Shown here: piece after piece, positions 10,245 to 27,311 of the stretch
How positions within the stretch are numbered: position 1 is the first letter of the stretch
Layout of the letters: each line of letters begins with the position of its first letter
Source of the DNA: Synergistaceae bacterium
GTDB lineage: Bacteria; Synergistota; Synergistia; Synergistales; 79-D21
Reading direction: 5' to 3'
NCBI GenBank assembly: GCA_029267465.1
Contig: JAJUIT010000003.1
Location: 1 to 40,354, forward strand
DNA length: 40,354 bases
Made by a program: the position numbers and the translations under genes
Notes under the pieces: generated by a model
What the model was told of the DNA's origin: nothing
Seen by the model: only the letters and a program-made list of their open reading frames with translations
The model's database searches: none

Positions 10245-10281
10245 CGCATCGCAGAACGAAAACGCGAAGGAGGTTGCAACC

Positions 10282-10557
10282 ATGAAAACCGCACAGGCCG
10301 GAACCGTGGAATCCATGGACTGCCTTGTCACGGTTTCCGAAGCCGAGCCGGGTACGGGGCTTGTCCTCAACCTGGCCGGATCAAGCGTGGCCCGGTTCTC
10401 GAAGGCCATGGAAAAGGCTGTCCGCGAAACGCTTGAAGGCCTCGGGATCCGGGACCTGGCCGTCAGCGTGCAGGACAACGGGGCCCTGGACCTCGTTCTG
10501 AAGGCTCGGCTCGAAGCCGCGGTCGCCCGGCTGAAAGAAGGGGGCGAATCGGCATGA
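10282..10557 (+). CDS. citD: Citrate (or citramalate-type) lyase acyl carrier protein, gamma subunit
   Basis: AAGGAGG RBS, ATG 10282. AGTVESMD prosthetic-group Ser motif and DNGALDLVLKARLEAA. 91 aa. Confidence 0.9.
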   Translation: MKTAQAGTVESMDCLVTVSEAEPGTGLVLNLAGSSVARFSKAMEKAVRETLEGLGIRDLAVSVQDNGALDLVLKARLEAAVARLKEGGESA

Positions 10558-11441
10558 GGCTCCGCAGAACGATGCTCTACCTTCCCGGGAACAATCCCAA
10601 CATGCTTCTTCGCGGCCATCTTTTCGCTCCCGACGGGCTGATCCTGGATCTGGAAGACGCGGTCGCGGTCCGGGAGAAGGACGCGGCCCGCGTCCTGGTC
10701 AGGGACGTCCTGAAGCGCGGGGAGTTCGGCTCCTGCGAGGTCACCGTCCGAATCAACGGGCTGGACACCGAATACTGGAGAAAAGACCTGGAGATGCTGG
10801 TCCCGCTGGGCAGGCTGGACGGGGTGCGGGCTCCGAAGGTCGACGACGCCGCCACGGTCCGGCTCCTGGACGAAGCGCTCAGCGAGATCGAAGAGAAAGC
10901 CGGGATCGAGGTCGGCAGGATCAAGATTTTCTGCCTGCTCGAAACGGCGAAGGGGATCTTCAACACCTACGACATCGCCACGGCCTCTCCGCGAGTGGCG
11001 GCGGTCATCCCGGGAGGCGAGGACTTGACCGCAGACCTTCGCACAAACCGTTCTCCCGAGGGAACCGAGCTCGAAGGAATCCGCAGGTCCGTGATCGTGG
11101 CCGCCCGTGCTGCGGGCGTTGACGCCCTGGACACGGTGTTCCCGAGGATCACCGACGACGAGGGGCTGAGGCGGGAAACGGAATTCATCAAGCAGCTCGG
11201 CTTTGACGGAAAGAGCGTGATCCATCCGAACCAGATCCCGATTATCCACGACGTCTTCACTCCCACGGAAAAGGAGATCGAGCGGGCGCAGAAGATCGTG
11301 GCGGCCGCGAAGGAAGCCGCAGAACGAGGGCTGGGAGCCGTCCAGGTGGACGGACGGATGGTGGACGCCCCCGTGGTGAAGCGGGCTCTCTTCACGCTCA
11401 CCCGGGCGGGGCTCCTGGAGGAGGGAACCGAGCATGCCTAA
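10554..11441 (+). CDS. citE: Citrate lyase beta subunit (citryl-ACP lyase; HpcH/HpaI family)
   Basis: RRTMLYLPGNNP, ILDLEDAV, VRIN, LETAKG, GFDGKSVIHPNQI, GRMVDAPVV. ATGA overlap with citD. Confidence 0.92.
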   Translation: MRLRRTMLYLPGNNPNMLLRGHLFAPDGLILDLEDAVAVREKDAARVLVRDVLKRGEFGSCEVTVRINGLDTEYWRKDLEMLVPLGRLDGVRAPKVDDAATVRLLDEALSEIEEKAGIEVGRIKIFCLLETAKGIFNTYDIATASPRVAAVIPGGEDLTADLRTNRSPEGTELEGIRRSVIVAARAAGVDALDTVFPRITDDEGLRRETEFIKQLGFDGKSVIHPNQIPIIHDVFTPTEKEIERAQKIVAAAKEAAERGLGAVQVDGRMVDAPVVKRALFTLTRAGLLEEGTEHA

Positions 11442-13049: not shown

Positions 13050-13583
13050 TCACGGGCGGGGGAAAAACCAGATCGCCCAGAGGTTGCCGAGAAAATGGTA
13101 AAGAATGGACGGAGCGATGTCCCCGTGTCTCAGCCGGAGCGCTCCCATGACCAGCCCCGGGAAGAAGGTGAGCAGGTAGAAGGGGTCGGACCGGAACACC
13201 AGGTGGGAGAGGGCAAAGAGGACCGAAGCGCCCAGGACGGCCAGCAACGGGGAAAGAACCCGGGCCAGCAGCGTCTGGACCCAGCCCCTGAAAAACACTT
13301 CCTCGGAAACCGCGGCAACAAGACCGGCAGAGGCGAAGGACACGACGACCCGGAAGGGCACGACCCGCGGCCAGTCCTGGGAGGGCCAGCCCACGAAAAC
13401 CGCCGCCGTCAGAGGAGCCAGGGTCAGGGTTGACGCGATCAACGACTCGGCGATCGCCCGCCTGCCGGGGCGCAGCGCCAGTCCGTATCGCTCAAGCGGT
13501 TCTTGCCGGGCCATGGCCCAGAGGTAGGGTCCGAACAGCATCACGGCCACGGCGACAAGAGGTCCAAGCATGCCCGGAATCAC
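13050..13583 (-). CDS. CPBP (Abi/CAAX) family glutamic intramembrane protease, myxosortase-like; candidate SYNERG-CTERM sorting enzyme
   Basis: Motifs SEEVFFRGWVQ, LFALSH, TFFPGLVMGALR, ILYHFLGN. Multiple TM segments. GTG start overlaps the stop of the Lgt-like gene. Confidence 0.85.
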   Translation of the reverse strand: MIPGMLGPLVAVAVMLFGPYLWAMARQEPLERYGLALRPGRRAIAESLIASTLTLAPLTAAVFVGWPSQDWPRVVPFRVVVSFASAGLVAAVSEEVFFRGWVQTLLARVLSPLLAVLGASVLFALSHLVFRSDPFYLLTFFPGLVMGALRLRHGDIAPSILYHFLGNLWAIWFFPRP

Positions 13584-14368
13584 CGGTTTTTCCTCCCCTC
13601 CCGGCTGCCAGCCCTGATTCGTGAAAGCGAGAATCCCAGCCAGAGAACGCCGAGCAGGAAAACCCCCAACCCCCAGGCCCTTGCCGAGGGCTCATCAAAA
13701 ACACCGTCCCCCCGGAACGGATCGACGACCAGGCGGACAAGCCCGTATCCGGCAAGAAATCCCGGCCAGAGGACCGCGACAGCAGGTCGTTCTTTTCCTG
13801 CAGAACCCAACTGGTTTTCGGTCCAGGCCAGAAGGGAAAGGAGCAGCACTCCCCCGGCCGATTCGTACAGCTCCGTCGGGTGCCTCAAGATCCCCGGGGG
13901 ATCGAAGGGGAAATGCACCGCCCAGGGCACCGCGGCCAGCTTCCCGTAGCAGCAGCCGTTCAAGAAGCACCCCCAGCGCCCCAGGGCAATGAGAGCCGCG
14001 GCCGGCAGGCTCGCGGCTTCAGCCAGGGACCAGAGGGGAATTTCCCTTTTCCTGAGAACAATCCAGGCCGTAAGCCCCCCGCCAAGGATGGCGGGAAGGG
14101 CGGAAAGTCCTCCTTCCCAGGGGCGCAGCAGCTTTTCCGGGTGCGCCGCGCTGGCCTCCCATTCAACCAGGATGTTTCCCAGGCGCGCCCAAACGAGGAT
14201 CCCCAGGAACCCCCAGAACAGGACAACGCGGACGTCCTCGTCTTCCAGACCGTAAAGCCGGACAGCACGCTTTCGGGTCCAGGTGAGGGCAAGCGCCAGG
14301 ACCAATGCCCAGATCACGGTATAGGTGTCGAGGACTGCGCTCCCCATCCTGAACAGCACTGGATGCAT
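13580..14368 (-). CDS. Prolipoprotein diacylglyceryl transferase (Lgt) family protein, atypical paralog
   Basis: Start reassigned to ATG 14368 (MHPVLF is a typical Lgt start; GGGGGGA RBS). WEGGLS, LGRWGCFLNGCCYG, RHPTELYE, YGLVRLVVDPFRGD. Confidence 0.88.
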   Translation of the reverse strand: MHPVLFRMGSAVLDTYTVIWALVLALALTWTRKRAVRLYGLEDEDVRVVLFWGFLGILVWARLGNILVEWEASAAHPEKLLRPWEGGLSALPAILGGGLTAWIVLRKREIPLWSLAEAASLPAAALIALGRWGCFLNGCCYGKLAAVPWAVHFPFDPPGILRHPTELYESAGGVLLLSLLAWTENQLGSAGKERPAVAVLWPGFLAGYGLVRLVVDPFRGDGVFDEPSARAWGLGVFLLGVLWLGFSLSRIRAGSREGRKNR

Positions 14369-14415
14369 CCGATCCCCCCAGGTCCAGCCGCGGAAAGTTT
14401 CGACCGGTGCGGATA

Positions 14416-14445
14416 TTGTACCCTTTTCCCGGGGAAGGCTATACT
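14416..14445 (+). promoter_or_regulatory. Putative promoter for the subtilase-T2SS operon, in the short divergent region shared with the lgt-like gene
   Basis: TTGTAC-18 bp-TATACT. The same DNA gives TACAAT on the - strand (14420-14415) as a possible -10 for lgt. Confidence 0.45.
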
Positions 14446-14487
14446 GAAACTTGGCAGGGAGTTCAGCTCGCCCCGGGAGGGATCGAT

Positions 14488-16302
14488 TTGCGACACTGTT
14501 CCATGAAAAGATTAACGGCATTGACGGTGGCGGTCGTTTGCCTTGTCTTCACCCTGGCGGCGTGGACCGGCTTTTCGAAAAGCGGAGATGCCGGGGAAAG
14601 ACTTCCCCGGGGAGCCTCGTTCGTCCCGGACGAAATCCTCGTCCAGCTCAAACCCGGCTACCGGCTGGAAACCGTGCTTTCAGCCCTCCCCATGCAGCTT
14701 GTCGCGGAGGAACCCGGGAAACCCGCACCTCGCGGCCTTGCGAGGCTGAAGATCCCGCGGGGAGAGACGGTCATGAACGCGGTATCGCTTCTGAAAGGGA
14801 AAGAAGGCGTCCTCTTCGCCCAGCCCAATTACGTCTACCGGGCCGCCGTTTTCCCGGACGACCCCAGCTACCCCAACCAATGGGCCCTTCCGAAAATCGG
14901 GGCCCCGACCGCCTGGGACCTGGCCACCGGCAGTTCGGACGTCCTCGTCGCCGTCCTCGACACGGGGGTTGACCTCAGCCACCCGGACCTTGCGGGCAAC
15001 CTCTGGACAAACCCGGATGAAATTCCCGGAGACGGCCTGGACAACGACGGCAACGGGTACGTCGACGACGTCCACGGCTGGAACTCGTCCGCCAATTCCG
15101 CGGATGTCCAGGACGATTTCGGGCACGGCACCCACGTCGCCGGAATCATCGGCGCCGTGGGCAACAATGGAACGGGCGTCGCCGGCGTGAACTGGAAAGT
15201 CGGGATCATCGCCGTCAAGGCAAACAAGGGGGACAGCTTCACCACGCTGGATCTCGCCAGGGGAACCGGCTACGTCACGGCCCTCAGGACGGGCAAGGGC
15301 CTGCCGATCGTGGCCGTCAACGCTTCCCTGGGAGCCGCCGTGTCCGAGGATCCCCTGCTGAACCAGGCCATCATAAATGCCGGCGAGGCAGGCATCCTTT
15401 TCGTCGCGGCTGCCGGCAACGACAACAGCGACAACGACCGGACGCCCTTCTACCCCTCCAGCCTGTTCAGGCCGAACGTGCTGTCGGTCGCCGCCACGGA
15501 CGAGAACGATGCCCTCGCGATCTTCAGCCTCCTCACTAACGAGGGCTCGAATTACGGACGACGGACCGTTCACCTTGGAGCCCCCGGCAAGTACATCGAG
15601 AGCACCTACTACTTCATAAGTACAAGCGCCGATACCCCGAGCGGTTATGAGAGACTAAGCGGGACCTCGATGGCGGCACCCCACGTGACCGGCATCCTGG
15701 CCCTCCTGAAGGCCCAGGATCCGAGCCGGGACTGGATCGCCCTGAAAAACAGGGTGCTTTCTACGGGAACCCCCTTGTCCGGCCTATCCTCGAAAACCAT
15801 AACGGGACGGCGCCTCCTGGCGGCCGGGGACGGTGCCTTAGGCGCCCTGACCGGAAGCGGCCAGACGGTGAAGTCCCGCCTTCGGCCCATCCCCGACAGC
15901 CTGGACCTGGAACAGGGAACGTCGCTGGACCTTGCCGCCCTGAACATCTCCGGGGAAGAATCCCTGGGGGACCTCCCCGTTTCGATCACCCGAAACGGAG
16001 CTTCCTACGGGACCCTCACCCTGAGGGACAACGGGACCGGGTTCGACCAGGCAGCGGGAGACGGGATCGCTTCCGCGACCTGGACGGTCCCCTCGTCGGC
16101 GAACAGCACCTACGTCTTCGCCTTCCCGGACGGGAACCTGACGGTGACGGTCGATCTCGCTGAAGAACCCCCCGCCCCGTCCGGCGGAGGCGGAGGGGGC
16201 GGCTGCAGCGCGGCCGGCGGCCTGGGACCGTTTTTCTTTCTCTGCATCCCAGCCGCACTCTTCGCCCTGAAAAGGAAGAAACCCGCGCCGCCTGACCGAT
16301 GA
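14488..16302 (+). CDS. S8 subtilisin-like serine protease with signal peptide, propeptide, C-terminal beta domain and Gly-rich/Cys C-terminal sorting tag (SYNERG-CTERM-like)
   Basis: GGGAGGG RBS before TTG 14488 (alternative ATG 14503). Triad VLDTG, HGTHVAG, GTSMAAPH; oxyanion AAAGN. LRDNG..DQAAGDG motif. Ends SGGGGGGGCSAAGGLGPFFFLCIPAALFALKRKK. Confidence 0.93.
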   Translation: MRHCSMKRLTALTVAVVCLVFTLAAWTGFSKSGDAGERLPRGASFVPDEILVQLKPGYRLETVLSALPMQLVAEEPGKPAPRGLARLKIPRGETVMNAVSLLKGKEGVLFAQPNYVYRAAVFPDDPSYPNQWALPKIGAPTAWDLATGSSDVLVAVLDTGVDLSHPDLAGNLWTNPDEIPGDGLDNDGNGYVDDVHGWNSSANSADVQDDFGHGTHVAGIIGAVGNNGTGVAGVNWKVGIIAVKANKGDSFTTLDLARGTGYVTALRTGKGLPIVAVNASLGAAVSEDPLLNQAIINAGEAGILFVAAAGNDNSDNDRTPFYPSSLFRPNVLSVAATDENDALAIFSLLTNEGSNYGRRTVHLGAPGKYIESTYYFISTSADTPSGYERLSGTSMAAPHVTGILALLKAQDPSRDWIALKNRVLSTGTPLSGLSSKTITGRRLLAAGDGALGALTGSGQTVKSRLRPIPDSLDLEQGTSLDLAALNISGEESLGDLPVSITRNGASYGTLTLRDNGTGFDQAAGDGIASATWTVPSSANSTYVFAFPDGNLTVTVDLAEEPPAPSGGGGGGGCSAAGGLGPFFFLCIPAALFALKRKKPAPPDR

Positions 16303-16913
16303 GCCGCGTGGGACAAAATCCCGGAAAGGGTTTTACCCTGGTCGAGGTTCTCGTGGCCATCGGTTTGATGGGCCTGGTGTCGGCGCTCGCCCTCGGGCCT
16401 TTGGCTGCTTTGACCGTAAGGCTGGAAGCGCTTCGGGCGCAGTATGCCGAAGAAGCGGCCCTTTCGTCGGCGCTTTCAGGCATCGCCGCGGACTGCCGGC
16501 AAATCCTCCCTCAAGGGGGAGATGCCCCCTTCCGGACGATCCGGAGAGAGGTCCTCGGGGGGGGCAGGAAAGATGTTCTCCTGGTCTGGACAGGGGCCCC
16601 CCTTTCCAGAAACCAGCCAGCGGCTACCGAGGTTTTTTCGATCGCCGACACCGGCCCCTTCCGGGAGCCGATCCAGCCGGGGCTGTACCGCTGGACCCTG
16701 GCGGGGACCCTCCCCGCGGACGTCAGCCCGGAGCGCCTGGACCCCAGGAAGGCGACCCTCCTGGTGAAAGGGGCGGATCGCTTTTCCGTCTCGGTGTTTG
16801 ACGGCAAGGAATGGGTCGAAGATTATTCCGGACCGGTTCCCCCGGGAGTGGCGCTTGGAATCTCAAGAAGGGGGGTCGAGGCCTCCCATGTGGACACGGT
16901 GCTTTCCTTCTAG
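16299..16913 (+). CDS. gspJ: Type II secretion minor pseudopilin, GspJ-like
   Basis: Prepilin motif KGFTLVEVLVA. 204 aa. C-terminal W...W....P.GV pattern. Directly upstream of gspK. Confidence 0.75.
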   Translation: MSRVGQNPGKGFTLVEVLVAIGLMGLVSALALGPLAALTVRLEALRAQYAEEAALSSALSGIAADCRQILPQGGDAPFRTIRREVLGGGRKDVLLVWTGAPLSRNQPAATEVFSIADTGPFREPIQPGLYRWTLAGTLPADVSPERLDPRKATLLVKGADRFSVSVFDGKEWVEDYSGPVPPGVALGISRRGVEASHVDTVLSF

Positions 16914-17817
16914 CGGGAGGCGGCAGGGCTTCGTCCTCGTCGCCGTCCTGATGGCTGTGGCTGTGCTCGTGACGGGAGCGCTCGCCTTTGCCTGGTTTTC
17001 CAGGATGGAGGTCCGCAAGGCGGAAGCTCTCGCCTTCTCGCTCGAGGCCCGAAGCCTGGCTGAAACCGCCGTATGGGAAATGAAACGGGGGCTTGTCCTG
17101 GATTCGAACGGCTCGGATTCCCTCCTGGAACCCTGGTTCGGGACCTGGCCCCTTCCGGTGGAGGGAAACATCGCCGTTCTCGTGCGCCTGGTTCCGAAAA
17201 ACGACGCGTTGCCGGTGAATTCGCTTTTTCTCCCGGACGGGATCACCCTGAGGCGCGAGTTGGAGATCCCCTGGCAAAGGCTCTGGGAGGAGCTGAAAAG
17301 ACCGGAGCTCGCCGAAGACCTGCTGGATTTCCTTGACAGGGACACGACCCCGAGAGCCGGGGGCCGCGAAGATCCACCCTTTCTCAACCGGCCCCCTTCT
17401 TCCCTGGAGGAGTTGCGCCTTTTCCCGGGCATTGACGAAACGCTCTACAGCGGGAAGAATGAAAAAATCCCGAAAGGGTTGGAGGATTTCCTGACCGTCC
17501 ACAGCGATGGGCGGATTAACGTCAACGTCGCGGCTCCCGGAGTCCTGGAGCTCCTCGACCCGACCCTCACCCCGGCCGTGGTCCGGGAGATCCTCGAAAG
17601 GAGAAACGGGGACCCCCTGTCCGGATGGAACGACCTCTCCGCTCTTCCGGGATTCCCCGCGGGGCTGGAACCGCGGCTTTCGGGTCTTCTGTCTTTCGCC
17701 AGCTCGCATTTTCTGGCACAGATCGAGGTTCGAAAGGGAAACCTCGTTCGACGTTTCGAGGCCGTGCTTCTCAAAAAGGAAAACCGCTGCACGGTCATCG
17801 CCTGGAAGGAGATGTAG
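16888..17817 (+). CDS. gspK: Type II secretion minor pseudopilin GspK
   Basis: RQGFVLVAVL (no Glu5), LLDFLDRD, SLEELRLFPG, GRINVNVA, SSHF. Start taken at ATG 16888. Confidence 0.88.
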   Translation: MWTRCFPSSGRRQGFVLVAVLMAVAVLVTGALAFAWFSRMEVRKAEALAFSLEARSLAETAVWEMKRGLVLDSNGSDSLLEPWFGTWPLPVEGNIAVLVRLVPKNDALPVNSLFLPDGITLRRELEIPWQRLWEELKRPELAEDLLDFLDRDTTPRAGGREDPPFLNRPPSSLEELRLFPGIDETLYSGKNEKIPKGLEDFLTVHSDGRINVNVAAPGVLELLDPTLTPAVVREILERRNGDPLSGWNDLSALPGFPAGLEPRLSGLLSFASSHFLAQIEVRKGNLVRRFEAVLLKKENRCTVIAWKEM

Positions 17818-17823
17818 CGGGGC

Positions 17824-18906
17824 ATGAAAGCCGAATTGACGGGTGGAAAACTCCCCTGCCGTTTCGTCACCCCGGAAGAAATGTCGTTCCATCCCTTTTC
17901 CTTCCCCTTCAGCGATCCGGCCCGCATCCGCCAGGCCCTTTTGCTGCAGCTCGCTTCCCTGATGGGGGAGGATTCGAAGCGGTTGCACCTGTGCCCGGTG
18001 GTTTTCCAGAGAGAAAAGGAAAGGACCCGGGGAGTTGCTCTGGTCTATCCGGATGACCTGGACAAGGGGCTGGAAAAAGGCGGAGAAACGCGCCTTTTTC
18101 CGGCTCCCCTAGCTTTCGGTGCGGCCCTCGACGGTTCAGGCCTCGGTGTTTGGGCCGACGAAAGCCACGTGTCGGCCGTCCTCTGGCGGGAGGGGATCCC
18201 AATCCTTTACCGCTGCGTTTCGCGGGCCGAGGCCGAACCCCAAGAGGTGATCGAATGGGTTCGGTCCTCTTCGGGAGAATCGGATTTCCCCGTCTTCCTC
18301 TTGGACAGCCGCGTCCTTCCCGATGCGGCGGAGCGCCTGGAGGCAGAGGCCCGGCGGACCTGGGCCGCCTTCCCTGCCCTCGCCCCCCTGGACCTTTCCC
18401 CCCGGCGCATGGAATCAGCCCTGCGGATCGAGCACCTTTCGGCCAACCTCAAACCCGCCCTTTCCGCCGGCCTGGTCCTGGGAATTCTCTTTTTGGCCGC
18501 TTCCGCCCTTTCCGCCCTTTCCGCCCAAAACCGTCTCGAAGCCTATGAAACGGCCTCCATCCGGCTTTACCGCGAGGTCTTCGACCCCACCGGCCCCGTT
18601 CGCGACCCCCTGAGCCAGGCTAAAGCCCGCCTGGCCGCCGTTTCCGGTACGGAGGAAAACGACGGGCTGATCCAGGTTTTCGCCATGCTGGGACGGGCCT
18701 GCCAGAAATCCGGTGAGGGGATCGTTCTCGATACGCTGCGATACTCCCAGAGACAGACGGAATTGACCGGCAAGGGACCATCCGTGGAGGCCGTCCGGGC
18801 CTTCCAACAGGCCCTGGAAGCCGGGGAAACTTCGCTCGAGGATCTCCAGCAGCTTCCCGCGGGACAGTACCGCTTCAAAATCATCGTCAGGGGGAAAAAC
18901 CAGTGA
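17824..18906 (+). CDS. gspL: Type II secretion inner-membrane platform protein GspL
   Basis: Position after gspK. FPFSDPARIRQAL cytoplasmic domain, one TM, LYREVF...VRDPLSQAK, PilN-like periplasmic end. Confidence 0.75.
   Translation: MKAELTGGKLPCRFVTPEEMSFHPFSFPFSDPARIRQALLLQLASLMGEDSKRLHLCPVVFQREKERTRGVALVYPDDLDKGLEKGGETRLFPAPLAFGAALDGSGLGVWADESHVSAVLWREGIPILYRCVSRAEAEPQEVIEWVRSSSGESDFPVFLLDSRVLPDAAERLEAEARRTWAAFPALAPLDLSPRRMESALRIEHLSANLKPALSAGLVLGILFLAASALSALSAQNRLEAYETASIRLYREVFDPTGPVRDPLSQAKARLAAVSGTEENDGLIQVFAMLGRACQKSGEGIVLDTLRYSQRQTELTGKGPSVEAVRAFQQALEAGETSLEDLQQLPAGQYRFKIIVRGKNQ
18501..18526 (+). repeat. In-frame 9-bp tandem repeat (TTCCGCCCT, about 3 copies) in gspL
   Basis: Seen directly; encodes SALSALSA at the end of the TM segment. 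Confidence 0.6.
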
Positions 18907-19418
18907 AGACGCCCTGGAAGGAGCTCATCGCCCGGCTTGGTCCATCCGCTTCCGGGGACGAGGCCATCCAGCGGAGGACGCGGATCTTGGCCATGGCGGT
19001 CCTGGTCTTTTTCCTCTGGGGAACCGGTTTGCTCCTCCTTGACCGTGCCCGTGAAACCGAAAACCGCATCGCCCTGGCGGCGGCCCGATTCTCCAGCCTG
19101 GCGAAAACCTCCCAGGCCTACCGGGCCCTTGTGCCCTCCCGCGCCGCGGGGAAAGCCATCAGCAACCCGGCGGATCCTCTTGCCGCTGCCTCGGAAGCGA
19201 TCGACCGGCTGCAGGTCAAGGATCGCCTGAAAAGCCTTTCAAGCTCCAGCCGAGGGGTTTCCATCGAACTGGAGGGACTCGGACAAAAGGAAACCCTTTC
19301 TTTGATCCGAGAGTTGAAGAAAGCCCGGCTGGCCGTTACCGCCGCCGAGATTCGCGCCCTGCCGCTTGGCGGGAAGAGGAGCCTTTCCGTGACCCTGCTT
19401 TTGGGAGGACAGCCATGA
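18903..19418 (+). CDS. gspM: Type II secretion protein GspM-like
   Basis: 171 aa, single N-terminal TM after RRTR, ferredoxin-like end (VSIELEGL...). Synteny after gspL, GTGA overlap. Confidence 0.65.
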   Translation: MKTPWKELIARLGPSASGDEAIQRRTRILAMAVLVFFLWGTGLLLLDRARETENRIALAAARFSSLAKTSQAYRALVPSRAAGKAISNPADPLAAASEAIDRLQVKDRLKSLSSSSRGVSIELEGLGQKETLSLIRELKKARLAVTAAEIRALPLGGKRSLSVTLLLGGQP

Positions 19419-20017
19419 ACCGCCCTCGGATCTCGGCCATAGGAACCACACTCGCCCTGCTCGCGGCTTTTCTCCTGGGAGCTTTCTGGGCTTTTCCCTG
19501 GGACCGGCTGGCGGAAACGATTCTTGAAGAAGCCTCGCGAAAAGCGACAGCCGCAGGATTTCGTCTGGACCAGGGAACCGTGCGGACGAACTCCCGCTTT
19601 CCCCTTGAGGTTGAGATCCGGGAGGTTTCGCTGGCGAACGTCCTGGGCTCGGTTCGGGCTCCTTCGGTCAAGGTCCGGCTGAAGCCTCTCGTCTTTCTTA
19701 CCCGGATGGCAGCGGGCCTGAAACTCGAAAGCCAGGCAGCCCGGCTCGAGCTTCCAGGGAGCCGACCCCTGGCCCTGACAGGGATCAAGGCTGATTTGGA
19801 TTTCTCCCGTTCGGAAGCCCGGATTCGCACCCTTTCTGTCGGTGGAGACCTGGGCCTTTCAGGAACGCTGACCTGGTCTTTCAACAGAAAACGGCTCTCC
19901 TTCACGGACCTGTCGATCCGGGCCCCCGAGAGCCTGGACCCCGGGTTGAACCTTCTCCGCTTCTCCATCGGCCTCCGGCCCGAAGGAAGCGGTCAGTGGA
20001 GGCTGAGAGTTCCATGA
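19415..20017 (+). CDS. gspN: Type II secretion protein GspN-like
   Basis: N-terminal TM ending FPWDRL, beta-rich periplasmic part (GGDLGLSGTL). Synteny after gspM, ATGA overlap. Confidence 0.6.
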   Translation: MNRPRISAIGTTLALLAAFLLGAFWAFPWDRLAETILEEASRKATAAGFRLDQGTVRTNSRFPLEVEIREVSLANVLGSVRAPSVKVRLKPLVFLTRMAAGLKLESQAARLELPGSRPLALTGIKADLDFSRSEARIRTLSVGGDLGLSGTLTWSFNRKRLSFTDLSIRAPESLDPGLNLLRFSIGLRPEGSGQWRLRVP

Positions 20018-20895
20018 GACTGACTCGGCTTGATTGGGCTTTTCCATGGAGGCTCCTTTACAGGATTTTGGCCGCCTTTCTTTGCGGCGTCCTTTTCGCC
20101 AGGCTCTCCGGCCTGTTTCTGGACGGCTTCGCCGCGAAACGGCGTTTCGAGCGGGCCCTTCGATCCGATCCCGCCGCCGCTCAACTGGAAGACAGAAGCT
20201 CCCTGGAGAACGATCTCGAAGCCTTCCTTGGGCGCAATCCATTCTCTCTTGAAGGAGAGGACCCCTCAACTCGTGGCCTGTCCGGGGAAATCCGGCTCCT
20301 GGGTACCTTCCCTCCCCTGGGAGCCCTTTTCGCGGTGAACGGAAGTACCAGGGCGGTCCTGGCGGGCCAGAAAATCGTGGGCGAAACCCTGAAAAAAATC
20401 GAGGGAACGCGCGCCGTCCTTGAAGGACCCGGCGGGACCCGCGTCCTTGAAGTTCTCTATGCGGGAGTGGGGGGGGACTCCCCCGCTTTTGTTCCGCCGC
20501 CTGCCTTTCCCACGGGAAGGGAACCGCGAGGCGTCTTCGACCCGAAACGGGGAATCCGGGGACCTTCCAACGGGCAGGAGGGAACCATCGAAAGGGACCT
20601 GATCAACAAACTCCTGATGGATCCCTACCAGGAACTGAACCGGGTCCGATTCCGACCGAAGATCGGGGAGGACGGAACCGCCCGGGGAATCGAGGTCCAG
20701 TGGCTTCATAAAGACAGCCTGCTTTCGGCCGTCGGAATCCGTTCCGGGGACGTCATCCATTCGCTGAACGACATTCCCATCCGAACGACCGCGGATATCG
20801 TGAACGCCATCAACTCCCTGCTGAACAGCGACCGGTTCGTTGTGTCCTTCTTCCGGGAAGGGACGGACTCGCAGGTCGCCTACTCGGTAAAATGA
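20014..20895 (+). CDS. gspC: Type II secretion protein GspC with PDZ domain
   Basis: N-terminal TM, HR-like IRLLGT region, PDZ (SLLSAVGIRSGDVIHSLND). ATG 20014 overlaps the gspN stop. Confidence 0.75.
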   Translation: MRLTRLDWAFPWRLLYRILAAFLCGVLFARLSGLFLDGFAAKRRFERALRSDPAAAQLEDRSSLENDLEAFLGRNPFSLEGEDPSTRGLSGEIRLLGTFPPLGALFAVNGSTRAVLAGQKIVGETLKKIEGTRAVLEGPGGTRVLEVLYAGVGGDSPAFVPPPAFPTGREPRGVFDPKRGIRGPSNGQEGTIERDLINKLLMDPYQELNRVRFRPKIGEDGTARGIEVQWLHKDSLLSAVGIRSGDVIHSLNDIPIRTTADIVNAINSLLNSDRFVVSFFREGTDSQVAYSVK

Positions 20896-21233
20896 AGGAA
20901 AAGAGAACATTCCGCCGGGGAGGCTTCACCCTGCTGGAAGTGTTAGTCGCTGTTTCAATCATGGGCCTTGCGGCGGCCGGAGCCCTGAGACTGGTCTTTC
21001 TTTCGGAGAAAGCCCTGGATGAAGCCCGCCAGAAACGTCTTTTCATCGAGGAAGTTTCACGGCTGCGTCTCGACCTGCTTTACGGAAGGGCCCCGGACAA
21101 CGGCAAAAGCGGCGACCTGTTCTGGGAAACACGCCGCGTTAGCCGCCCTTTTCTGGACAACCGCTGGGATATCCGGTACAGGACGGTGTCGGTCAAATCC
21201 AAAACCCGCACCATGGAACTGATACTTCCCTGA
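20892..21233 (+). CDS. gspI: Type II secretion minor pseudopilin, GspI-like
   Basis: RRGGFTLLEVLVAVSI prepilin motif. 113 aa, the size of GspI. Confidence 0.72.
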   Translation: MKEKRTFRRGGFTLLEVLVAVSIMGLAAAGALRLVFLSEKALDEARQKRLFIEEVSRLRLDLLYGRAPDNGKSGDLFWETRRVSRPFLDNRWDIRYRTVSVKSKTRTMELILP

Positions 21234-21247
21234 GGGAGGGGATTCTC

Positions 21248-23218
21248 TTGCACCGTAAGCGTCATCCATTCATATCCTTCATCCTGTTTCTCGTCATCGT
21301 GGCTGCCGGAACGTCTGTCGGCGGACCCTGCCGGGGCCAGACCCCCCAGGACGAAGGCAGCCTCGTCGAAGCCGCAAGGGCAATGCGAAACTCGGGATCC
21401 GTCCAGTTCAATTTCCGGGACCTGGATCTCGGCACCTTTATCCGGTTCATGTCAGAGCTGCTGCAGGAGAACATCCTCATCGATCCTACCGTGAAGGGGA
21501 CGGTTACGGTGGTTTCGCCGAGAGCCCTCAGCCTGCCGGAGGCCCGACAGGCGATGCTCTCGGTCCTGGAAATGAACGGACTTTCGCTCCAGCGAACGGG
21601 AACGTACAGCAAGGTCGTTCCAGCATCCAAGGGCCAAAGCACCGATTACGCCGTCCGGAAGGGAAGGGTGGGCCCGGGGTTTGGGGAGAGCTTTGTCACA
21701 CAGATCGTTCCGCTGGATTACGTTTCCGCGTCCTTCGTTGCGGATGGGATCAAAGCCGCCATGAGCGGCGAGGTGGGAGTCGCCCCCATGGCCAGCGGGG
21801 CCAAGGTCCTCCTCATGGGGAAAGCGACGGCGATCCAGAAGGCGCTGGGAGTCATCAACGCCCTCGATGCCGCCGACAGCCTGAAGAACAGCAGGACCGT
21901 CGATATTCGGAACACCACTCCCTCCTCCCTTGCTTCCCAGTTGACAGCGATGGCCAAAGACCCGGCTTCCCCCCTGGCCGGGCTTTTGGCCGTTCCCGAC
22001 GACGCTTCGCGCAAACTCGTCCTGATCGGGGAAAAACGCGTTTTCGGCGAAGCCCAGAAAATCATCCGGGAGCTGGATATCCCTGCCCGCGCAGGGCAGT
22101 ATCACGTGGTCCCGCTGAAAAACACCGACGCAAGAATCATGGCCGAGAAACTGAGCACGATTCTTTCCACCGCCTCAAAGCTTCAGCCTGACCAGAAAGG
22201 GGCCCTCCCCGCCAGCGTTGTGGCGGACCCGGGGACGAACAGCCTGATCTTCGTGGCGGAAGACGCAACCGCGAGAAACATCGAGGCGATCATCCAGAAG
22301 CTCGACATCCAGCCCAAGCAGGTTTTTATCCGGGGCCTCATCGCCGAGGTCAACATGACCCGGCTGAACAACGCCGGGATCGACTGGGCCACCTGGGGAG
22401 GAGCCATCACCGGCGACGCCGTGCTGGCCGGCCAGGCCGCGCTGGGCAACCCGACGGGAATCCCCTCGGAGTTCGTCAACTGGTTCCGGGACCTGACCCG
22501 GGTTGAGGAAAAGGAATACGACAAGAACGGGAACCTGGTCACCACGACGAAATACGAGGGGAAATCGCTCATCTACGCCACGATCAACATGCTGAAGAAA
22601 TACGACGCCATCAACGTGCTATCCATGCCGAGGCTTCTTTGCACCGACAACATGGAAAGCGAGCTGCAGGTCGGCCAGGTGATCCCCCAGCTCAAATCGA
22701 AGCTGGCGGATACGACCAACCCGAGCGCCGTCCAGAACAGCTACGATTACAAGGACACGGGACTCATCCTGAAGGTGACCCCCCACGTGCGAAGCGGAAA
22801 CCTGGTCGCCCTGGAGATCGACCAGACCGTGGAAGACGTTCTCACACCCATGACCGTGAACACCCCCACCACGTCCAAGCGCCAGATCAAGAGCAACGTC
22901 ACCGTCGGGGACGGACAGACCATCGTCCTTGGCGGGCTCATCAAGGAATCCGAAAAGTCCGTCAAGTCGAGGGTTCCAATCCTGTCCTACATCCCTCTCC
23001 TCGGGGACTTCTTCAAGAGCGCGGCAAAATCGCGCGAGAAGATCGACCTGTTGATCTTCCTGACGCCCCAGATCCTCGAGACCCCTGAAGAGGCGAGCCT
23101 TCTGACGAATCAGATTTCCAATTCGTCGGGCGACGTGGAAACCCAGCTGACCGAGATGGAGCGCCTCTATAAACAGAAGAACGACGCCCTTTACAGGCAG
23201 GGAGTGAAAAACCAGTGA
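21248..23218 (+). CDS. gspD: Type II secretion secretin GspD
   Basis: Signal peptide, N0 (FNFRDLDL..FI..IDPTVKGTVTV), N domains, QVFIRGLIAEV, LSMPRLL, YKDTGLILKVTP, DGQTIVLGGLI, VPILSYIPLLG. Confidence 0.95.
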   Translation: MHRKRHPFISFILFLVIVAAGTSVGGPCRGQTPQDEGSLVEAARAMRNSGSVQFNFRDLDLGTFIRFMSELLQENILIDPTVKGTVTVVSPRALSLPEARQAMLSVLEMNGLSLQRTGTYSKVVPASKGQSTDYAVRKGRVGPGFGESFVTQIVPLDYVSASFVADGIKAAMSGEVGVAPMASGAKVLLMGKATAIQKALGVINALDAADSLKNSRTVDIRNTTPSSLASQLTAMAKDPASPLAGLLAVPDDASRKLVLIGEKRVFGEAQKIIRELDIPARAGQYHVVPLKNTDARIMAEKLSTILSTASKLQPDQKGALPASVVADPGTNSLIFVAEDATARNIEAIIQKLDIQPKQVFIRGLIAEVNMTRLNNAGIDWATWGGAITGDAVLAGQAALGNPTGIPSEFVNWFRDLTRVEEKEYDKNGNLVTTTKYEGKSLIYATINMLKKYDAINVLSMPRLLCTDNMESELQVGQVIPQLKSKLADTTNPSAVQNSYDYKDTGLILKVTPHVRSGNLVALEIDQTVEDVLTPMTVNTPTTSKRQIKSNVTVGDGQTIVLGGLIKESEKSVKSRVPILSYIPLLGDFFKSAAKSREKIDLLIFLTPQILETPEEASLLTNQISNSSGDVETQLTEMERLYKQKNDALYRQGVKNQ

Positions 23219-24696
23219 GCGAAACGGGCTTCGACCCCGAGGAAATCCTTTCTCTCATCCCGGAAAACCTGAGCCTCGACACCCTCCGGGGGGCCGGAGT
23301 CCTTCCGCTGCGCAGGGAGGGAGACTCCCTGGTGCTGGCCGTCTCGTCCCTGGAAACCTACGGCAACGCCCAGCTCCTCTCCCGGTCCTTCGAAGGGAAA
23401 ATCCGGATCGAGATCGCCGATCCCGCCCTGATGAACGGGCTTTTTGACCGCCTGTACACCCTTCGGAGCCGGATCGCCTCGGACGACCTCGAAGCCATCG
23501 AAGGAGTCCTGGACCTGGACACGGTGGCCCGCGAGGACATCCAGAGCGACTCGGTCTCCGCACCGGTGATCCGCCTCGTGAACAGCCTTCTCTTTGAAGC
23601 CGTGAAGGAGAGGGCGACGGATATCCATGTCGAACCCTTCGAGGACCGCTGCGAGATCAGGTTCCGGGTGGACGGCGTCCTCCACGAAAAGCTGAGCCTT
23701 CCGAAAACCCACCAGGCCCCCCTGACGACCCGGATCAAGGTCATGGCCCGCATGGACATCTCTGAACGGTTCTCTCCACAGGACGGGCGGATCGGCATAT
23801 CCGTGGGCGGCCGCTCCGTGGACATCCGGGTCGGATCGGTGCCCACCCGGCATGGAGAAAGGCTAGCTCTCAGGCTCCTGGACAAGAGACAGGGGCTTTT
23901 AACGCTGGACCAGCTCGGCATGCCGGAAAAAAGCAGGGCGGCCCTGGAGGGAATGGTTTCAAGGCCGTACGGGATGATCCTCCTGACCGGCCCCACGGGG
24001 TCTGGAAAGACGACGACCCTTTACGCCATCCTGCAAAAACTCGCTCGGCCCGAGGTGAACATCATCACCGTCGAAGACCCGATCGAATACGACCTGCCGG
24101 GTGTCGGGCAAATCCAGGTGAACGAAAAGGCCGGGGTCACGTTTGCCTCCGCCCTCAGGGCCATCCTGAGACAGGATCCAGACATCATCATGGTGGGCGA
24201 AATGCGGGATTTCGAAACCGCTCACATGGGAGTCCAGGCTTCCCTGACGGGCCATCTCGTGCTGTCGACCCTCCATACCAACGACGCCCCCAGCGCAGTC
24301 GTAAGGCTGGCGGACATGGGAGTGGAATCCTACCTGGTGGCAGGCTCACTCCTGGGAGTCGTGGCCCAGCGCCTTGTCCGGCGCACCTGCCCATCCTGCT
24401 CGGCCGAGGCTGAAGCCCCTCCCCCCTTTCGGAAAGCGGGGATCGAAACCGTCCAAAGGGGCACCGGCTGCGAGCAATGCCTGGGAACCGGTTATTATGG
24501 CCGCTTCGGCCTTTATGAACTGCTGGTGATGGACGACTCCCTCAGGGAAGCCGTTTCGAAAGGCGCCTCCTCTTCAAAAATCCGGGAACTCGCCAGGGAA
24601 AGGGGATTCAAAACCCTCTGGGAGGCGGGACTGAAAAGGGTACGGCAGGGCCTGACTACCCCCGAGGAACTGATCCGGGCGGTCGGGGAGGCTTAA
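23215..24696 (+). CDS. gspE: Type II secretion ATPase GspE
   Basis: ATDIHVEP, PQDGRI, Walker A GPTGSGKTTT, TVEDPIE, LRQDPDIIMVGEMRD, TGHLVLSTLHTN, CxxC...CxxC. Confidence 0.95.
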   Translation: MSETGFDPEEILSLIPENLSLDTLRGAGVLPLRREGDSLVLAVSSLETYGNAQLLSRSFEGKIRIEIADPALMNGLFDRLYTLRSRIASDDLEAIEGVLDLDTVAREDIQSDSVSAPVIRLVNSLLFEAVKERATDIHVEPFEDRCEIRFRVDGVLHEKLSLPKTHQAPLTTRIKVMARMDISERFSPQDGRIGISVGGRSVDIRVGSVPTRHGERLALRLLDKRQGLLTLDQLGMPEKSRAALEGMVSRPYGMILLTGPTGSGKTTTLYAILQKLARPEVNIITVEDPIEYDLPGVGQIQVNEKAGVTFASALRAILRQDPDIIMVGEMRDFETAHMGVQASLTGHLVLSTLHTNDAPSAVVRLADMGVESYLVAGSLLGVVAQRLVRRTCPSCSAEAEAPPPFRKAGIETVQRGTGCEQCLGTGYYGRFGLYELLVMDDSLREAVSKGASSSKIRELARERGFKTLWEAGLKRVRQGLTTPEELIRAVGEA

Positions 24697-24700
24697 ACCG

Positions 24701-25861
24701 ATGCCGAGATTTCGCTACACAGCATACGACGTTCAGGGGAAGCCGGTGACGGGAGAGCTGGAAGGAATCAGCGAGGGCTCCGCGGTGCAGGCCCTTCGGA
24801 AGGAGGGGCTGGTTCCCGTGGAGCTTCGCGTGCTGGCGGACCGGCACGGGGCTTCCCGAAAAAGGGGGGAACAGGTTCCTCTCGAAGACCATTTGCTCTT
24901 CTGCAGGAGCCTTGCCGGTTACCTGAGAGGCGGCTTAACCCTGAGCCATGTCCTGGTCCTTTTGGGGAAACAGTCCCCGAGCGAAAGCCTGCGGGAACTT
25001 TACAGCGGCCTGAAGGCGGAAGTCGAGGCGGGAAAGAGCCTGGGAGCGGCGATGCGGGAATCCCGACGATTCAGGGGGGACCTGGTTGGGATGGTGGAAT
25101 CCGGGGAACGGAGCGGATCCCTTCCCCAGGTCCTGGACAGAGCCGCCCGCCTTTACCGGCTGGAAATCAGCCTGCGCAGGCGGGTGCGAAGCGCGCTCAC
25201 CTACCCCCTCGTCATGTTCGGGGTCGGAACGGTCGTGGTGGTTTTCCTTCTGACCTATGTCGTTCCGAAGCTTTCGGCCCTTTTTGCCGACATGGGAGAA
25301 AGCCTTCCGCTTCCAACAAGGCTTCTGCTCTGGCTGTCTGCCTTTCTAAAATCCGCAGGAATCCCTCTCCTCCTCGCAGCGACGGCATTCCTGCTATTCC
25401 TGGGACGAAAAAGATCCCTGCTTTCGAGACTCCCGTTCAGGGGCTTGAAGGAACGCATCACCTTATCCCTGGTCTTTTCGCACCTTGCGACTCTCCTGGA
25501 TTGCGGGATCCCTCTTGTCCAGGCCCTTTCAATGGTCGCCCCGATGGATCCGGCCCCGGGAAGATGGGATTCGGTCTCGGAGAGAATCCGGAAAGGGTAC
25601 CGGCTTGGACAGGCTCTCCACGACGAAGGTTCCTTCCCGGAAGACGCCGTCTACATCGTCCAGGTGGGAGAAGCCGGTGGGGAGCTGTCCGAAGCCCTCC
25701 AGCAGGTAGCGGACAACAGCTGGGAAATCGCCGAAAACCGAATGGCGCGGCTGGCTGACCTCGTCGAACCGGCAATGGTCCTCGCCCTTGGCGCGATCGT
25801 GGGATTTGTCGTCGTTGCCATCCTCCTGCCGATCTTCGATCTGTCGTCTCTCATCCGGTAA
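24701..25861 (+). CDS. gspF: Type II secretion inner-membrane protein GspF
   Basis: MPRFRYTAYD, GERSGSL, SALTYP, LPLPTR, GEAGGEL, EP...AILLPIF. Confidence 0.93.
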   Translation: MPRFRYTAYDVQGKPVTGELEGISEGSAVQALRKEGLVPVELRVLADRHGASRKRGEQVPLEDHLLFCRSLAGYLRGGLTLSHVLVLLGKQSPSESLRELYSGLKAEVEAGKSLGAAMRESRRFRGDLVGMVESGERSGSLPQVLDRAARLYRLEISLRRRVRSALTYPLVMFGVGTVVVVFLLTYVVPKLSALFADMGESLPLPTRLLLWLSAFLKSAGIPLLLAATAFLLFLGRKRSLLSRLPFRGLKERITLSLVFSHLATLLDCGIPLVQALSMVAPMDPAPGRWDSVSERIRKGYRLGQALHDEGSFPEDAVYIVQVGEAGGELSEALQQVADNSWEIAENRMARLADLVEPAMVLALGAIVGFVVVAILLPIFDLSSLIR

Positions 25862-25896
25862 AACGAATGAAAAACAAAACCAAGGAGGTCCTTCTT

Positions 25897-26325
25897 GTGA
25901 GAGAAAAACGCAGAAGCGGTTTCACCCTTGTGGAGATTCTCGTCGTGGTGGTGATCCTGGGGCTGCTGGCCACCCTGGTGGTCCCCCGGGTTGTGGGAAG
26001 GGGAGAAGAAGCCAAGCGAACCGCGGCCCTCGTGCAGATCCGGTCAATCGAGCAGGCCCTGGAACTCTACAAGCTCGATAACGGCTTCTACCCCTCCACG
26101 GAGCAGGGACTCGAGGCCCTCGTGACGCGGCCTTCAGGAACGCCTGAACCGCAGAATTACCGGGACGGCGGCTACATGAAGAAGATCCCCCTGGATCCCT
26201 GGGGGCGGCCGTACATCTACCGCTGCCCGGGAGAACACGGGGAAACGGACATCCTCTCCCTCGGCCCGGACGGAGAGGAAGGCGGGGAAGGAAAGAACCG
26301 GGACATTACCAACTGGGAGGAATGA
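25897..26325 (+). CDS. gspG: Type II secretion major pseudopilin GspG
   Basis: AAGGAGG RBS before GTG 25897. GFTLVEILVVVVILGLLA, ALELYKLDNGFYPSTEQGLEALV, DPWGRPYIY, SLGPDG, DITNW. Confidence 0.96.
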   Translation: MREKRRSGFTLVEILVVVVILGLLATLVVPRVVGRGEEAKRTAALVQIRSIEQALELYKLDNGFYPSTEQGLEALVTRPSGTPEPQNYRDGGYMKKIPLDPWGRPYIYRCPGEHGETDILSLGPDGEEGGEGKNRDITNWEE

Positions 26326-26363: not shown

Positions 26364-27311
26364 TCAGCGCTGGATTGAGATTCCCAGCAACCAGACCCAG
26401 GCGGGGATCGAAACCACGGAGAAAAGGGTGCTGGCCACGATGACTTTCGCCGCGTACTCTGCATCCATCCCCAATGAATCCGCGATCACGAAATTGTTGA
26501 CGGCCGCGGGCATGGCGCAAACCAGCACGACAGCCTGCAAGACCGACCGCTCCACCGGCCAGGGAAGAAACGCCAGCCAGACGATTGCCGGCGAAAGGAA
26601 AAGCCGAACCAGGACATCGGCCCATGTCCGTGAAATAACCTCGAAGAGATGTTCGACCTTCAGGGAGGCCCCCAGTGCAATCAAGGCCACGCCGCTGGCC
26701 ATCCCCCCGGTGATCTTCAGCGCTTCGTCCAGCGCTTCCGGCAGGCTGCCCACCCCCGAAAGCGCCAGGGCGACTCCGGCTATGCAGGAAAGGAGAAGGG
26801 GATTTCTGGAAAGCCCAAAGACCGTTTTTTTCAGGGAATCGCGGCTGATCCCGCCGGATACGGCCACCTGGGCCCAGGTCAGGGTGATGAGGTGGTACCC
26901 TACCATGCACACGGCGAAGAAAAGCCCGAGGGCCCTGGCGCCGACATCCCCCATCGCCAGGGTAACGGCCGGAATTCCCATGTAAACGTTGTTCGAGCGG
27001 ACGGAAACGAGAACCGAAACGGCGCGCCGGCGTGGGTCCTTGTGGTAGAGGGAAGCCAGCAGCCAGGCGACCGCCGGAGTCAGGATGAACGAAAGATGAA
27101 CGGCCAGGAAAAGATTCGGTGAGGAAAAGGCATCCTTTCCAACGGACAGGGTGGATCGGAACAGCAGGGCCGGAAGGCCGATCCAATACAAAAGATCGTT
27201 CAGCTGGGAAATGCTTTCCTCTCGAATGAGGCCCCTCCTCCGGGCGATCCACCCCGCCGCCATCACGAGGACCAGGGGAGCCACGATCTTGATTCCGTGC
27301 AAGAGACTCAC
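26364..27311 (-). CDS. AEC (auxin efflux carrier / malate permease-like) family transporter
   Basis: About 10 TM segments. LPALLF, SNNVYMGIP, NPLL, LIALG, MPAAVN, STLFSVVSIP. Confidence 0.9.
   Translation of the reverse strand: MSLLHGIKIVAPLVLVMAAGWIARRRGLIREESISQLNDLLYWIGLPALLFRSTLSVGKDAFSSPNLFLAVHLSFILTPAVAWLLASLYHKDPRRRAVSVLVSVRSNNVYMGIPAVTLAMGDVGARALGLFFAVCMVGYHLITLTWAQVAVSGGISRDSLKKTVFGLSRNPLLLSCIAGVALALSGVGSLPEALDEALKITGGMASGVALIALGASLKVEHLFEVISRTWADVLVRLFLSPAIVWLAFLPWPVERSVLQAVVLVCAMPAAVNNFVIADSLGMDAEYAAKVIVASTLFSVVSIPAWVWLLGISIQR

Follow-up and report, generated by a model that had tools for sequence, protein, structure and literature searches.

Proteins with the Synerg-CTERM sorting tag, the intramembrane protease MrtS and a Synergistota subclass of the type II secretion system (T2SS) have been linked to one another by phylogenetic profiling, in a preprint that is also the source of the NF041616-NF041619 models for the Synergistota T2SS (Haft, bioRxiv 10.1101/2023.06.07.544157). 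The tag contains a Cys, and the enzyme that modifies its side chain is called unknown there, with 0 occurrences of Lgt in that text. In the MYXO-CTERM system, MrtX cleaves the tag, and does so also in Escherichia coli, a host without such a system (mBio 2025, PMC11980579). Based on this tag processing in E. coli, the accessible part of the article names Lgt as the 'leading acyl-transferase candidate' for Cys tags, the acyl-transferase being one that 'remains unidentified', and Lgt as the enzyme acting on the invariant Cys is therefore already a published hypothesis (PMC11980579). Homologues of the CPBP protease family are reported to cleave only once the Cys is lipidated (PMC11980579; 10.1101/2023.06.07.544157). 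Experiments on MrtS were not found in the accessible parts of either source, and in the literature searched no comparative-genomic support for the Lgt guess was found in print, with 'myxosortase' and 'Lgt' occurring together only in PMC11980579. Here, we describe a locus on a DNA stretch of 40,354 nucleotides (the window; contig C170 of the Synergistota assembly G000, which is 2.06 Mb in size, 93.6% complete and has a G+C content of ~62%) in which lgt, mrtS, a subtilase with a C-terminal Cys tag and a T2SS operon lie together, and we weigh whether Lgt lipidates the Cys of such tags.

The locus is a member of the described Synerg-CTERM/MrtS/T2SS system (TIGR04564, NF040589, NF041616-NF041619) and, judged by its predicted gene products, makes up a complete cluster for the sorting and export of Synerg-CTERM proteins in a Synergistota bacterium. 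It is alike in MrtS, in a GspL above cut-off, in GspM, GspN and GspC proteins that find their best models in this set, in its tagged proteins and in coming from an organism of the same taxonomic order. It differs in that lgt and mrtS are coupled translationally, the T2SS operon opens with a tagged substrate, no LspA was found in the genus, and the tail of the window's subtilase is too divergent for TIGR04564. The MYXO-CTERM/MrtX system of Myxococcus xanthus shares a Cys-containing tripartite tag, removal of the helix by a CPBP protease and T2SS-dependent surface display, but cleavage is experimentally supported there, MrtX differs in its N-terminal half, and no lgt gene linkage is reported in the accessible part of the article (PMC11980579). 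CAAX processing in eukaryotes and archaea, in which a prenyltransferase acts before Rce1, likewise uses a separate enzyme to lipidate a Cys in the C-terminal region and a CPBP glutamic protease to cut distally to it; in the present case, in contrast, the proposed lipid is diacylglycerol and not a prenyl group, the piece removed would be an entire transmembrane helix, not three residues, and the reactions would take place on the periplasmic instead of the cytoplasmic side. GlyGly-CTERM proteins, as described for VesB of Vibrio, also combine a serine protease cargo, a tripartite C-terminal tag, an intramembrane protease and T2SS transport to the surface, but there the protease is a rhomboid (rhombosortase) and not a CPBP protein, and the tag is without an invariant Cys.

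The lgt and mrtS genes form a pair on the minus strand, in which the TGA stop of lgt and the GTG start of mrtS overlap as GTGA (13580-13583), confirming the coupling proposed in an earlier model reading of the bare letters (the sequence-only reading); mrtS has an alternative ATG start 12 nt downstream of the GTG. The true start of lgt is most likely the ATG at 14368, because the protein then aligns with other Lgt proteins, which open M-x-P-V-L-F. Transcribed away from this pair is the subtilase gene, whose start is the ATG at 14503 and whose signal peptide opens MKRLTALTVAVVCLVF. The divergence had been recognized from the start, but with a spacer of about 120 bp; these two start codons place it at 14369-14502, or 134 bp. 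The subtilase was also described correctly as ending in poly-Gly, Cys, a transmembrane helix and KRKK, with a TGA stop that overlaps the ATG of the first T2SS gene, of prepilin type, as ATGA (16299-16302). The whole forms a compact cluster that is bounded on one side by plus-strand citF (11434-12984) and on the other by a minus-strand transporter gene (26364-27311).

To place this arrangement, 121 Synergistota genomes including G000 were scored for MrtS, Lgt, LspA and the tag, with GspL also searched. The window's genus is labelled g1 (G000, G060, G086, G085 and G089), with G060 and G086 as its Lgt-bearing congeners. The lgt-mrtS pair is adjacent in all three Lgt-bearing g1 genomes and stands beside the same subtilase-T2SS operon. 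In g10, which belongs to a different family from g1 and has an Lgt that is 34% identical, lgt is found immediately upstream of gspJ and 1.8-1.9 kb from gspL in 6/6 genomes. The order in one of these, G021, is lgt-gspJKLM-C-I/H-DEF, followed by gspG and mrtS on the opposite strand, and gspN has no match in this cluster. A further order is seen in G036, from one species of g5, where mrtS, two open reading frames (ORFs), lgt and an htrA-like gene form a co-directional run with junctions that overlap or measure 3-4 bp. The two intervening ORFs were considered as thiol-reductase partners, a candidate role that was dropped, both being without a Pfam match. In G077, weak GspL-like matches are found 1.6 kb away from lgt. 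The gene orders of g1, g10 and G036, all three different and each from another family, argue for repeated recruitment of lgt to these genes, and not for one inherited accident.

The presence of Lgt also follows that of MrtS. MrtS scores above its cut-off in 80/121 genomes, all 80 of which contain Lgt and 78 of which have a tag match, and it is found in none of the 28 genomes that lack an Lgt match. All four of MrtS, Lgt, LspA and tag are present in 60/121 genomes and none of the four in 26/121, while MrtS, Lgt and tags occur without LspA in 18/121. Lgt is present alone in 6/121, and another 6/121 have Lgt and LspA with only a sub-threshold MrtS-like match, namely five genomes of the outgroup families plus G077, which belongs to a sister family within the same class as the window; the last 5/121 show single odd patterns. 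The combination of Lgt and LspA with no MrtS-like match at all was seen in 0/121 genomes. LspA is unmatched in 19/80 MrtS-positive genomes, and the LspA-less sets include all Lgt-bearing members of g1 (3) and all members of g10 (6), g20 (5) and g30 (2) that were sampled, which represent four families. The co-occurrence of MrtS with Lgt, the LspA-less genera and the position of lgt inside an mrtS/T2SS cluster were not found in print. As a separate observation, the 26 genomes without a match for Lgt, LspA, MrtS, GspL or tag include the single-contig genomes G004, G013, G020 and G081 as well as G085 and G089, which are g1 congeners of the window's organism with genomes of 1.2 Mb; these 26 appear to be members of a diderm phylum without any lipoprotein-maturation genes.

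Because LspA is short and divergent in Synergistota, its absence was subjected to a harder search. When a profile of 20 Synergistota LspA sequences was run unfiltered against 22,923 six-frame ORFs from G000, the best E was 0.98, and the same 20-sequence alignment found nothing significant in G060, G086, G021, G039 or G080 (best E 0.185). Among the LspA-less g10 genomes, G051 is a single contig. No Lnt scoring above cut-off was found in G000. FlgH, of the flagellar L-ring, was also examined as a marker lipoprotein. The FlgH of G000 (C175:16076-16582) has an N-terminus that runs LFLFAGGC and then SAESLW, and no FlgH match was found in the congeners G060 and G086. Across 20 genomes of all categories, including outgroups with a canonical Lgt and genomes without Lgt, the FlgH N-termini show signal-peptidase-I-like sites and no conserved Cys; with such sites across the phylum the marker is uninformative either way, and it was dropped.

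The window's Lgt scores 140.8 bits with PF01790 (cut-off 24.9) and 107.7 bits with the TIGR00544 equivalog model, which is under the cut-off of 118.9. It is the one PF01790 match in the whole G000 genome, and no second LGT-family gene was found in G000, G060 (99% complete) or G086 (97% complete); in the sample as a whole, an LGT match is present in 93/121 genomes and is single copy in 92 of the 93. Thus, the earlier description of this gene as a 'paralog' beside a separate housekeeping lgt did not hold. Compared with the canonical Lgt-LspA-Lnt pathway, the window's enzyme belongs to the same Lgt family and retains the equivalents of Y26, R143, G154, Y235 and R239 of E. coli Lgt (5AZB), and in its proposed substrate the Cys likewise stands where a single membrane helix ends on the periplasmic side, with small residues flanking it. 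It differs from E. coli Lgt at H103, which is L, at N146 and E151, which are both C, and at E243, which is D; the locus further departs from the canonical pathway in that LspA and Lnt are undetected in G000 and that the helix of the proposed substrate is C-terminal to the Cys, giving an inverted topology. The residues reported as needed in E. coli Lgt are Y26, H103, R143, E151, G142/G145 and a network of N146, Y235, R239 and E243, and mutants of H103 and E151 are inactive (PMC4728403).

These replacements turn out to be shared well beyond the locus. The motif GR-x-GC-x-x-x-GCC-x-G (GCFxNGCC) is present in 56/56 Lgt proteins sampled from the window's class, regardless of LspA or MrtS, while the Lgt of two outgroup families (n=5) has the canonical GRWGNF-N-EAFG and HG. 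Other phyla were surveyed with a degenerate DNA pattern of the motif against a species-representative collection, in which at least 120 contigs matched, where ~10 would be expected by chance according to our own rough estimate. Among the matches listed, 80/80 loci with the Cys-variant pattern fall in LGT-family ORFs, from Planctomycetota, Omnitrophota, Armatimonadota, Bacillota, Zixibacteria, Bacteroidota and others. The Cys-variant is the sole LGT gene of two chromosomes, one from Armatimonadetes and one from Zixibacteria, and of a Syntrophomonas genome; LspA is present in all three, and in the Armatimonadetes chromosome lspA directly adjoins it. The same replacements in the sole-copy Lgt of LspA-bearing members of other phyla are therefore no argument against Lgt function, and by its sequence we take the window's protein to be an ordinary housekeeping Lgt, from a Cys-variant clade that is widespread. 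GCFxNGCC had been considered as the mark of a special, C-terminal-acting Lgt, and was rejected as such since the motif is widespread and stands alongside LspA elsewhere. The clade deserves mention in its own right, in that GCFxNGCC, with its three cysteines, replaces the E. coli signature GNFxNGE in the active site and the HGGL histidine is missing, yet it supplies the sole Lgt, accompanied by LspA, in several phyla. In the same survey, a Binatia genome (G123, reached via locus L148) gave 12 LGT-family matches, one of which has an in-frame TGA.

The CPBP protease of the locus can be assigned with more precision. It matches NF040589 at 216.7 bits (cut-off 130), with residues 9-176 aligned to positions 3-169 of the 170 in the model, and PF02517 at 69 bits, being the sole PF02517 gene of the G000 genome, while it reaches only 44.4 bits with the MrtX model NF040593 (cut-off 180). 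The CPBP catalytic motifs EExxxR, FxxxH and HxxxN are all present, and the corresponding residues E94, E95, R99, F123, H127, H163 and N167 show no variation among 27 MrtS sequences, the window's included. These results bear out the early suggestion that this is the tag protease: by family membership it is predicted to be MrtS, the dedicated protease of the tag system.

The proposed cargo of this protease is the subtilase, which scores 169.6 bits with PF00082 and 30.8 bits with PF22148. Residues 537-563 of its 631-residue ORF match choice_anch_X (NF041940) at 27.7 bits (cut-off 25), which we take, going by the NCBIfam name choice-of-anchor X, to be a segment preceding alternative C-terminal anchors. 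The C-terminus ends PSGGGGGGGCSAAGGLGPFFFLCIPAALFALKRKKPAPPDR. Its plan is G7-C, a SAAGGLGP spacer, the helix FFFLCIPAALFAL, KRKK and a PAPPDR extension, which follows the tripartite arrangement of a Gly/Ser-rich motif ending in Cys, a hydrophobic helix and a basic cluster. The tail departs from the usual plan in its 8-residue spacer, in a second Cys within the helix and in the 6-residue extension. TIGR04564, the Synerg-CTERM model (27 positions, cut-off 22.5 bits), left the last 60 residues of the subtilase unmatched at E<=10, and a whole-genome scan of G000 with this model also gave no match at the subtilase tail; elsewhere in the genome it finds two tails above cut-off and one just under. 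Four other ORF tails in G000, the three just mentioned among them, share with the subtilase the motif of a G/S-rich stretch, C-S-[A/T], a transmembrane helix and a basic end. In all five tags the sequence reads G-G-C-S-[A/T] with the helix following at once, and the small residues beside the tag Cys on the membrane side would then resemble a lipobox read backwards. The four other tagged proteins (contigs C17, C42, C43 and C60) are small, at about 217-370 residues as read; one has a GLUG motif and two are without a Pfam match. The subtilase orthologue in G060 retains a tail of the same plan, G8-C, a transmembrane helix and RKRKK. The orthologue in G086 (L264, 10957-12573), which aligns over 475/599 residues, has an Arg/Pro-rich C-terminus with no Cys tag, and this may reflect either a frameshift or real loss of the tag.

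Downstream of the subtilase is an 11-gene T2SS run of gspJ-like, K, L, M, N, C, I/H-like, D, E, F and G genes, the last ending at 26325 (Table 1). The cluster holds a secretin, an ATPase, an inner-membrane platform, major and minor pseudopilins and the C/L/M assembly proteins, and no prepilin peptidase was found within it. Its matches to the NF041616-NF041619 models identify it as a predicted T2SS of the Synergistota type, and the sequence-only proposal of a T2SS as partner of the tag system is in this way borne out, most clearly by GspL. In ~30 genomes of family f3, which are most of its genomes (g5, g28 and others), the GspL_SYNERG match is interrupted by one in-frame stop (TGA, TAA or TAG); this points to a gspL divided into two genes in that family, and is not a sequencing error of any one genome.

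Table 1. Predicted features of the lgt-mrtS-subtilase-T2SS locus, with coordinates in the window and, for the T2SS genes, model scores.
Feature	Position	Strand	Description or best evidence
mrtS	13050..13583	-	177 aa, CPBP/Rce1-like glutamic-type intramembrane protease of the Synerg-CTERM system
lgt	13580..14368	-	262 aa from ATG at 14368; ORF open to 14521
Divergent intergenic region	14369..14502		134 bp, between lgt and the subtilase/T2SS operon
Secreted subtilase (S8)	14503..16302	+	Signal peptide, fervidolysin-like prodomain, choice-of-anchor X segment, C-terminal Cys tag
C-terminal sorting tag of subtilase	16183..16299	+	G7-C-SAAGGLGP-hydrophobic helix-KRKK-PAPPDR (translation)
Minor pseudopilin, GspJ-like	16299..16913	+	TIGR02532 24.3 bits (cut-off 16.3); weak gspJ match
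gspK	16888..17817	+	NF037980 102 bits (below cut-off 130), sole match; start uncertain, ORF open from 16798
gspL, Synergistota type	17824..18906	+	NF041617 256 bits (cut-off 150)
gspM, Synergistota type	18903..19418	+	NF041618 104.9 bits (below cut-off 120), sole match
gspN, Synergistota type	19415..20017	+	NF041619 102.2 bits (below cut-off 140), best match
gspC with PDZ domain, Synergistota type	19996..20895	+	NF041616 183.8 bits (below cut-off 200), best match
Minor pseudopilin, GspI/H-like	20892..21233	+	TIGR02532 28.5 bits (cut-off 16.3); gspI 29.2 bits, below cut-off
gspD secretin	21248..23218	+	TIGR02517 400.7 bits (cut-off 351.35)
gspE ATPase	23215..24696	+	TIGR02533 582.3 bits (below cut-off 630.25), best match
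gspF inner-membrane platform	24701..25861	+	TIGR02120 274.3 bits (below cut-off 424), best match
gspG major pseudopilin	25867..26325	+	TIGR01710 192.6 bits (cut-off 88.85)

The genes flanking the cluster are of other kinds. Upstream, at 7115-12984, are aconitase-family, isocitrate/isopropylmalate dehydrogenase-family and citrate lyase alpha subunit genes, and downstream, at 27379-30845, are a gene for an MrfA-type DEAD-box helicase that carries a Zn-binding domain and another of RNase H fold.

The mechanism that we propose for this locus has four steps. The subtilase would first cross the inner membrane by the Sec pathway and stay held there by its C-terminal helix. At the periplasmic face of the membrane, Lgt would then take diacylglycerol from phosphatidylglycerol and attach it to the tag Cys, after which MrtS, made from the same message, would remove the helix distal to the lipidated Cys, much as Rce1 acts after prenylation. 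Finally, the T2SS would carry the lipid-anchored protease to the cell surface. That Lgt lipidates the Cys of C-terminal tags is a proposition on which we are evenly divided, and one that is strengthened by the linkage of lgt to mrtS or T2SS genes in two genera and one species of a third, by the full co-occurrence of MrtS with Lgt and by the lack of an LspA match in g1. Since neither LspA nor Lnt was found in g1, Lgt and then MrtS may act as the principal or even the sole lipoprotein route of this genus, and may there form the mirror image of Lgt followed by LspA. The diderms of the Synergistota are not known to have a Lol system. For the LspA-less lineages g1, g10, g20 and g30, we also entertain the broader view, which we find doubtful, that Lgt now acts mainly on C-terminal Cys tags, with Lgt-MrtS replacing Lgt-LspA and the T2SS taking over from Lol the transport to the outer surface. 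On that view, a Cys on one side of a membrane helix or on the other could be lipidated by one and the same Lgt active site, and MYXO-CTERM, JDVT-CTERM and related tags from other phyla would be no exception.

A number of observations weigh against Lgt as the enzyme of the tag. Of the co-occurrence and synteny of Lgt, the CPBP protease and the T2SS that the sequence-only reading put forward for checking, the co-occurrence of MrtS with Lgt is full but synteny is rare, as lgt lies within 5 kb of mrtS or gspL in only 9/80 MrtS-positive genomes, and in complete genomes lgt is 55 kb to ~1 Mb away from mrtS and the T2SS. LspA is kept in 61/80 MrtS-positive genomes, and Lgt there therefore presumably also serves ordinary N-terminal lipoproteins. 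The three genomes of g15, which are 99% complete, and G112 keep Lgt without MrtS, another CPBP protein, LspA, GspL or tags, so that Lgt must have some role that needs neither MrtS nor LspA; in G030 and G062 of g15 (loci L265 and L266), lgt stands in an rnpA-yidD-yidC-jag-lgt-htrA run. At the 80 listed Cys-variant lgt loci of other phyla, CPBP neighbours number 0 by phmmer with MrtS and 1 by motif, in a scan that covered Cys-variant loci. Related genomes are not independent, and the co-occurrence counts therefore overstate the support, while the whole gene set could be lost jointly simply as 'envelope' genes. A few N-termini in G000 carry acceptable lipoboxes, for example LAGC and LASC. At the level of the substrate, the topology of the tag is opposite to that of a signal peptide and there is no lipobox, a difficulty that is raised also in PMC11980579, and neither lipidation nor cleavage has so far been shown for any Synerg-CTERM protein. 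A prediction of the Lgt-MrtS complex from two alignments gave a score of 0.00 against a mark of 0.32, which speaks neither for nor against binding.

The strongest alternative is that lgt is the housekeeping enzyme for N-terminal lipoproteins, that its place in the locus is accidental or serves lipoprotein parts or cargo of the T2SS, and that some other enzyme modifies the tag Cys. It gains from lgt being the sole LGT gene of the genome and from its clade being the sole Lgt in other phyla, once beside lspA, as well as from the lack of adjacency in 71/80 MrtS-positive genomes, the Lgt retained in g15 and G112 without MrtS, LspA or any CPBP protein, the LspA kept by most MrtS-positive genomes and the lipobox-like N-termini of G000. 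In g1, however, where LspA and Lnt were not found, the ordinary pathway would end after its first step. Nor does it account well for the three gene orders that bring lgt beside mrtS or the T2SS, or for a pairing of Lgt with LspA that is never kept once MrtS is gone among the 121 genomes, and family scans of the window show that the cluster encodes no other candidate transferase. A Cys after lipobox-like sites in G000 is likewise not enriched (3/308 strict and 7/582 loose sites against a background of 1.4%), but this count depends on crude gene calls (longest-ORF greedy) and its positive control is too weak for it to carry weight, with Cys at 2/106 strict sites in 380 kb of three outgroups that have a canonical Lgt and LspA, and at 0/18 strict sites in 400 kb of the LspA-positive relative G033. 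Taken with both sides in view, a purely housekeeping lgt strikes us as a substantial possibility, though one that we would not expect to prevail.

A second alternative does without the lipid, in that MrtS alone would decide the fate of the protein, for example by cleaving it and handing it to the T2SS, with a role for the Cys in recognition, in a disulfide or in attachment of another kind. No Cys-type CTERM protein has been shown to carry a lipid, the authors of PMC11980579 do not, in the accessible part of the article, exclude that 'no modification' is needed, and the subtilase tail has a second Cys inside its helix. Against this, the characterised CPBP relatives Rce1 and MmRce1 require a lipidated Cys before cleavage (PMC11980579; 10.1101/2023.06.07.544157), retention at the surface after loss of the helix needs some anchor, and the strict co-occurrence and linkage with Lgt would be left unexplained. 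We consider a tag without lipid improbable. A dedicated paralog of Lgt, specialised for C-terminal Cys lipidation while a housekeeping lgt stands elsewhere in the genome, is scarcely credible, for although the protein falls under the TIGR00544 cut-off (107.7 against 118.9 bits) and lacks H103, N146 and E151, mutation of which inactivates E. coli Lgt (PMC4728403), no second LGT-family match exists in G000, G060 or G086, and GCFxNGCC occurs in 56/56 Lgt proteins of the class with or without LspA or MrtS, in 80/80 listed loci of many other phyla, and as the only LGT gene of the LspA-bearing Armatimonadetes, Zixibacteria and Syntrophomonas genomes.

Returning to Lgt as the enzyme that lipidates the C-terminal tag, the sequence-only reading took the locus to nominate the missing lipid transferase. 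The idea itself was already in print (PMC11980579), and what the locus and its relatives add is comparative-genomic support for that published guess, in the form of linkage and co-occurrence. A sole Lgt that is coupled translationally to the tag protease makes the question of the missing transferase directly testable, and because organisms of this kind keep Lgt and MrtS without an LspA match, much could be learned from any Lgt-dependent lipoprotein that they prove to have, so that they offer a cleaner test bed. If true, the proposal would widen the substrate range of an essential, drug-targeted enzyme, and would explain how lipid-anchored enzymes come to be placed at the surface in Synergistota, a diderm group.

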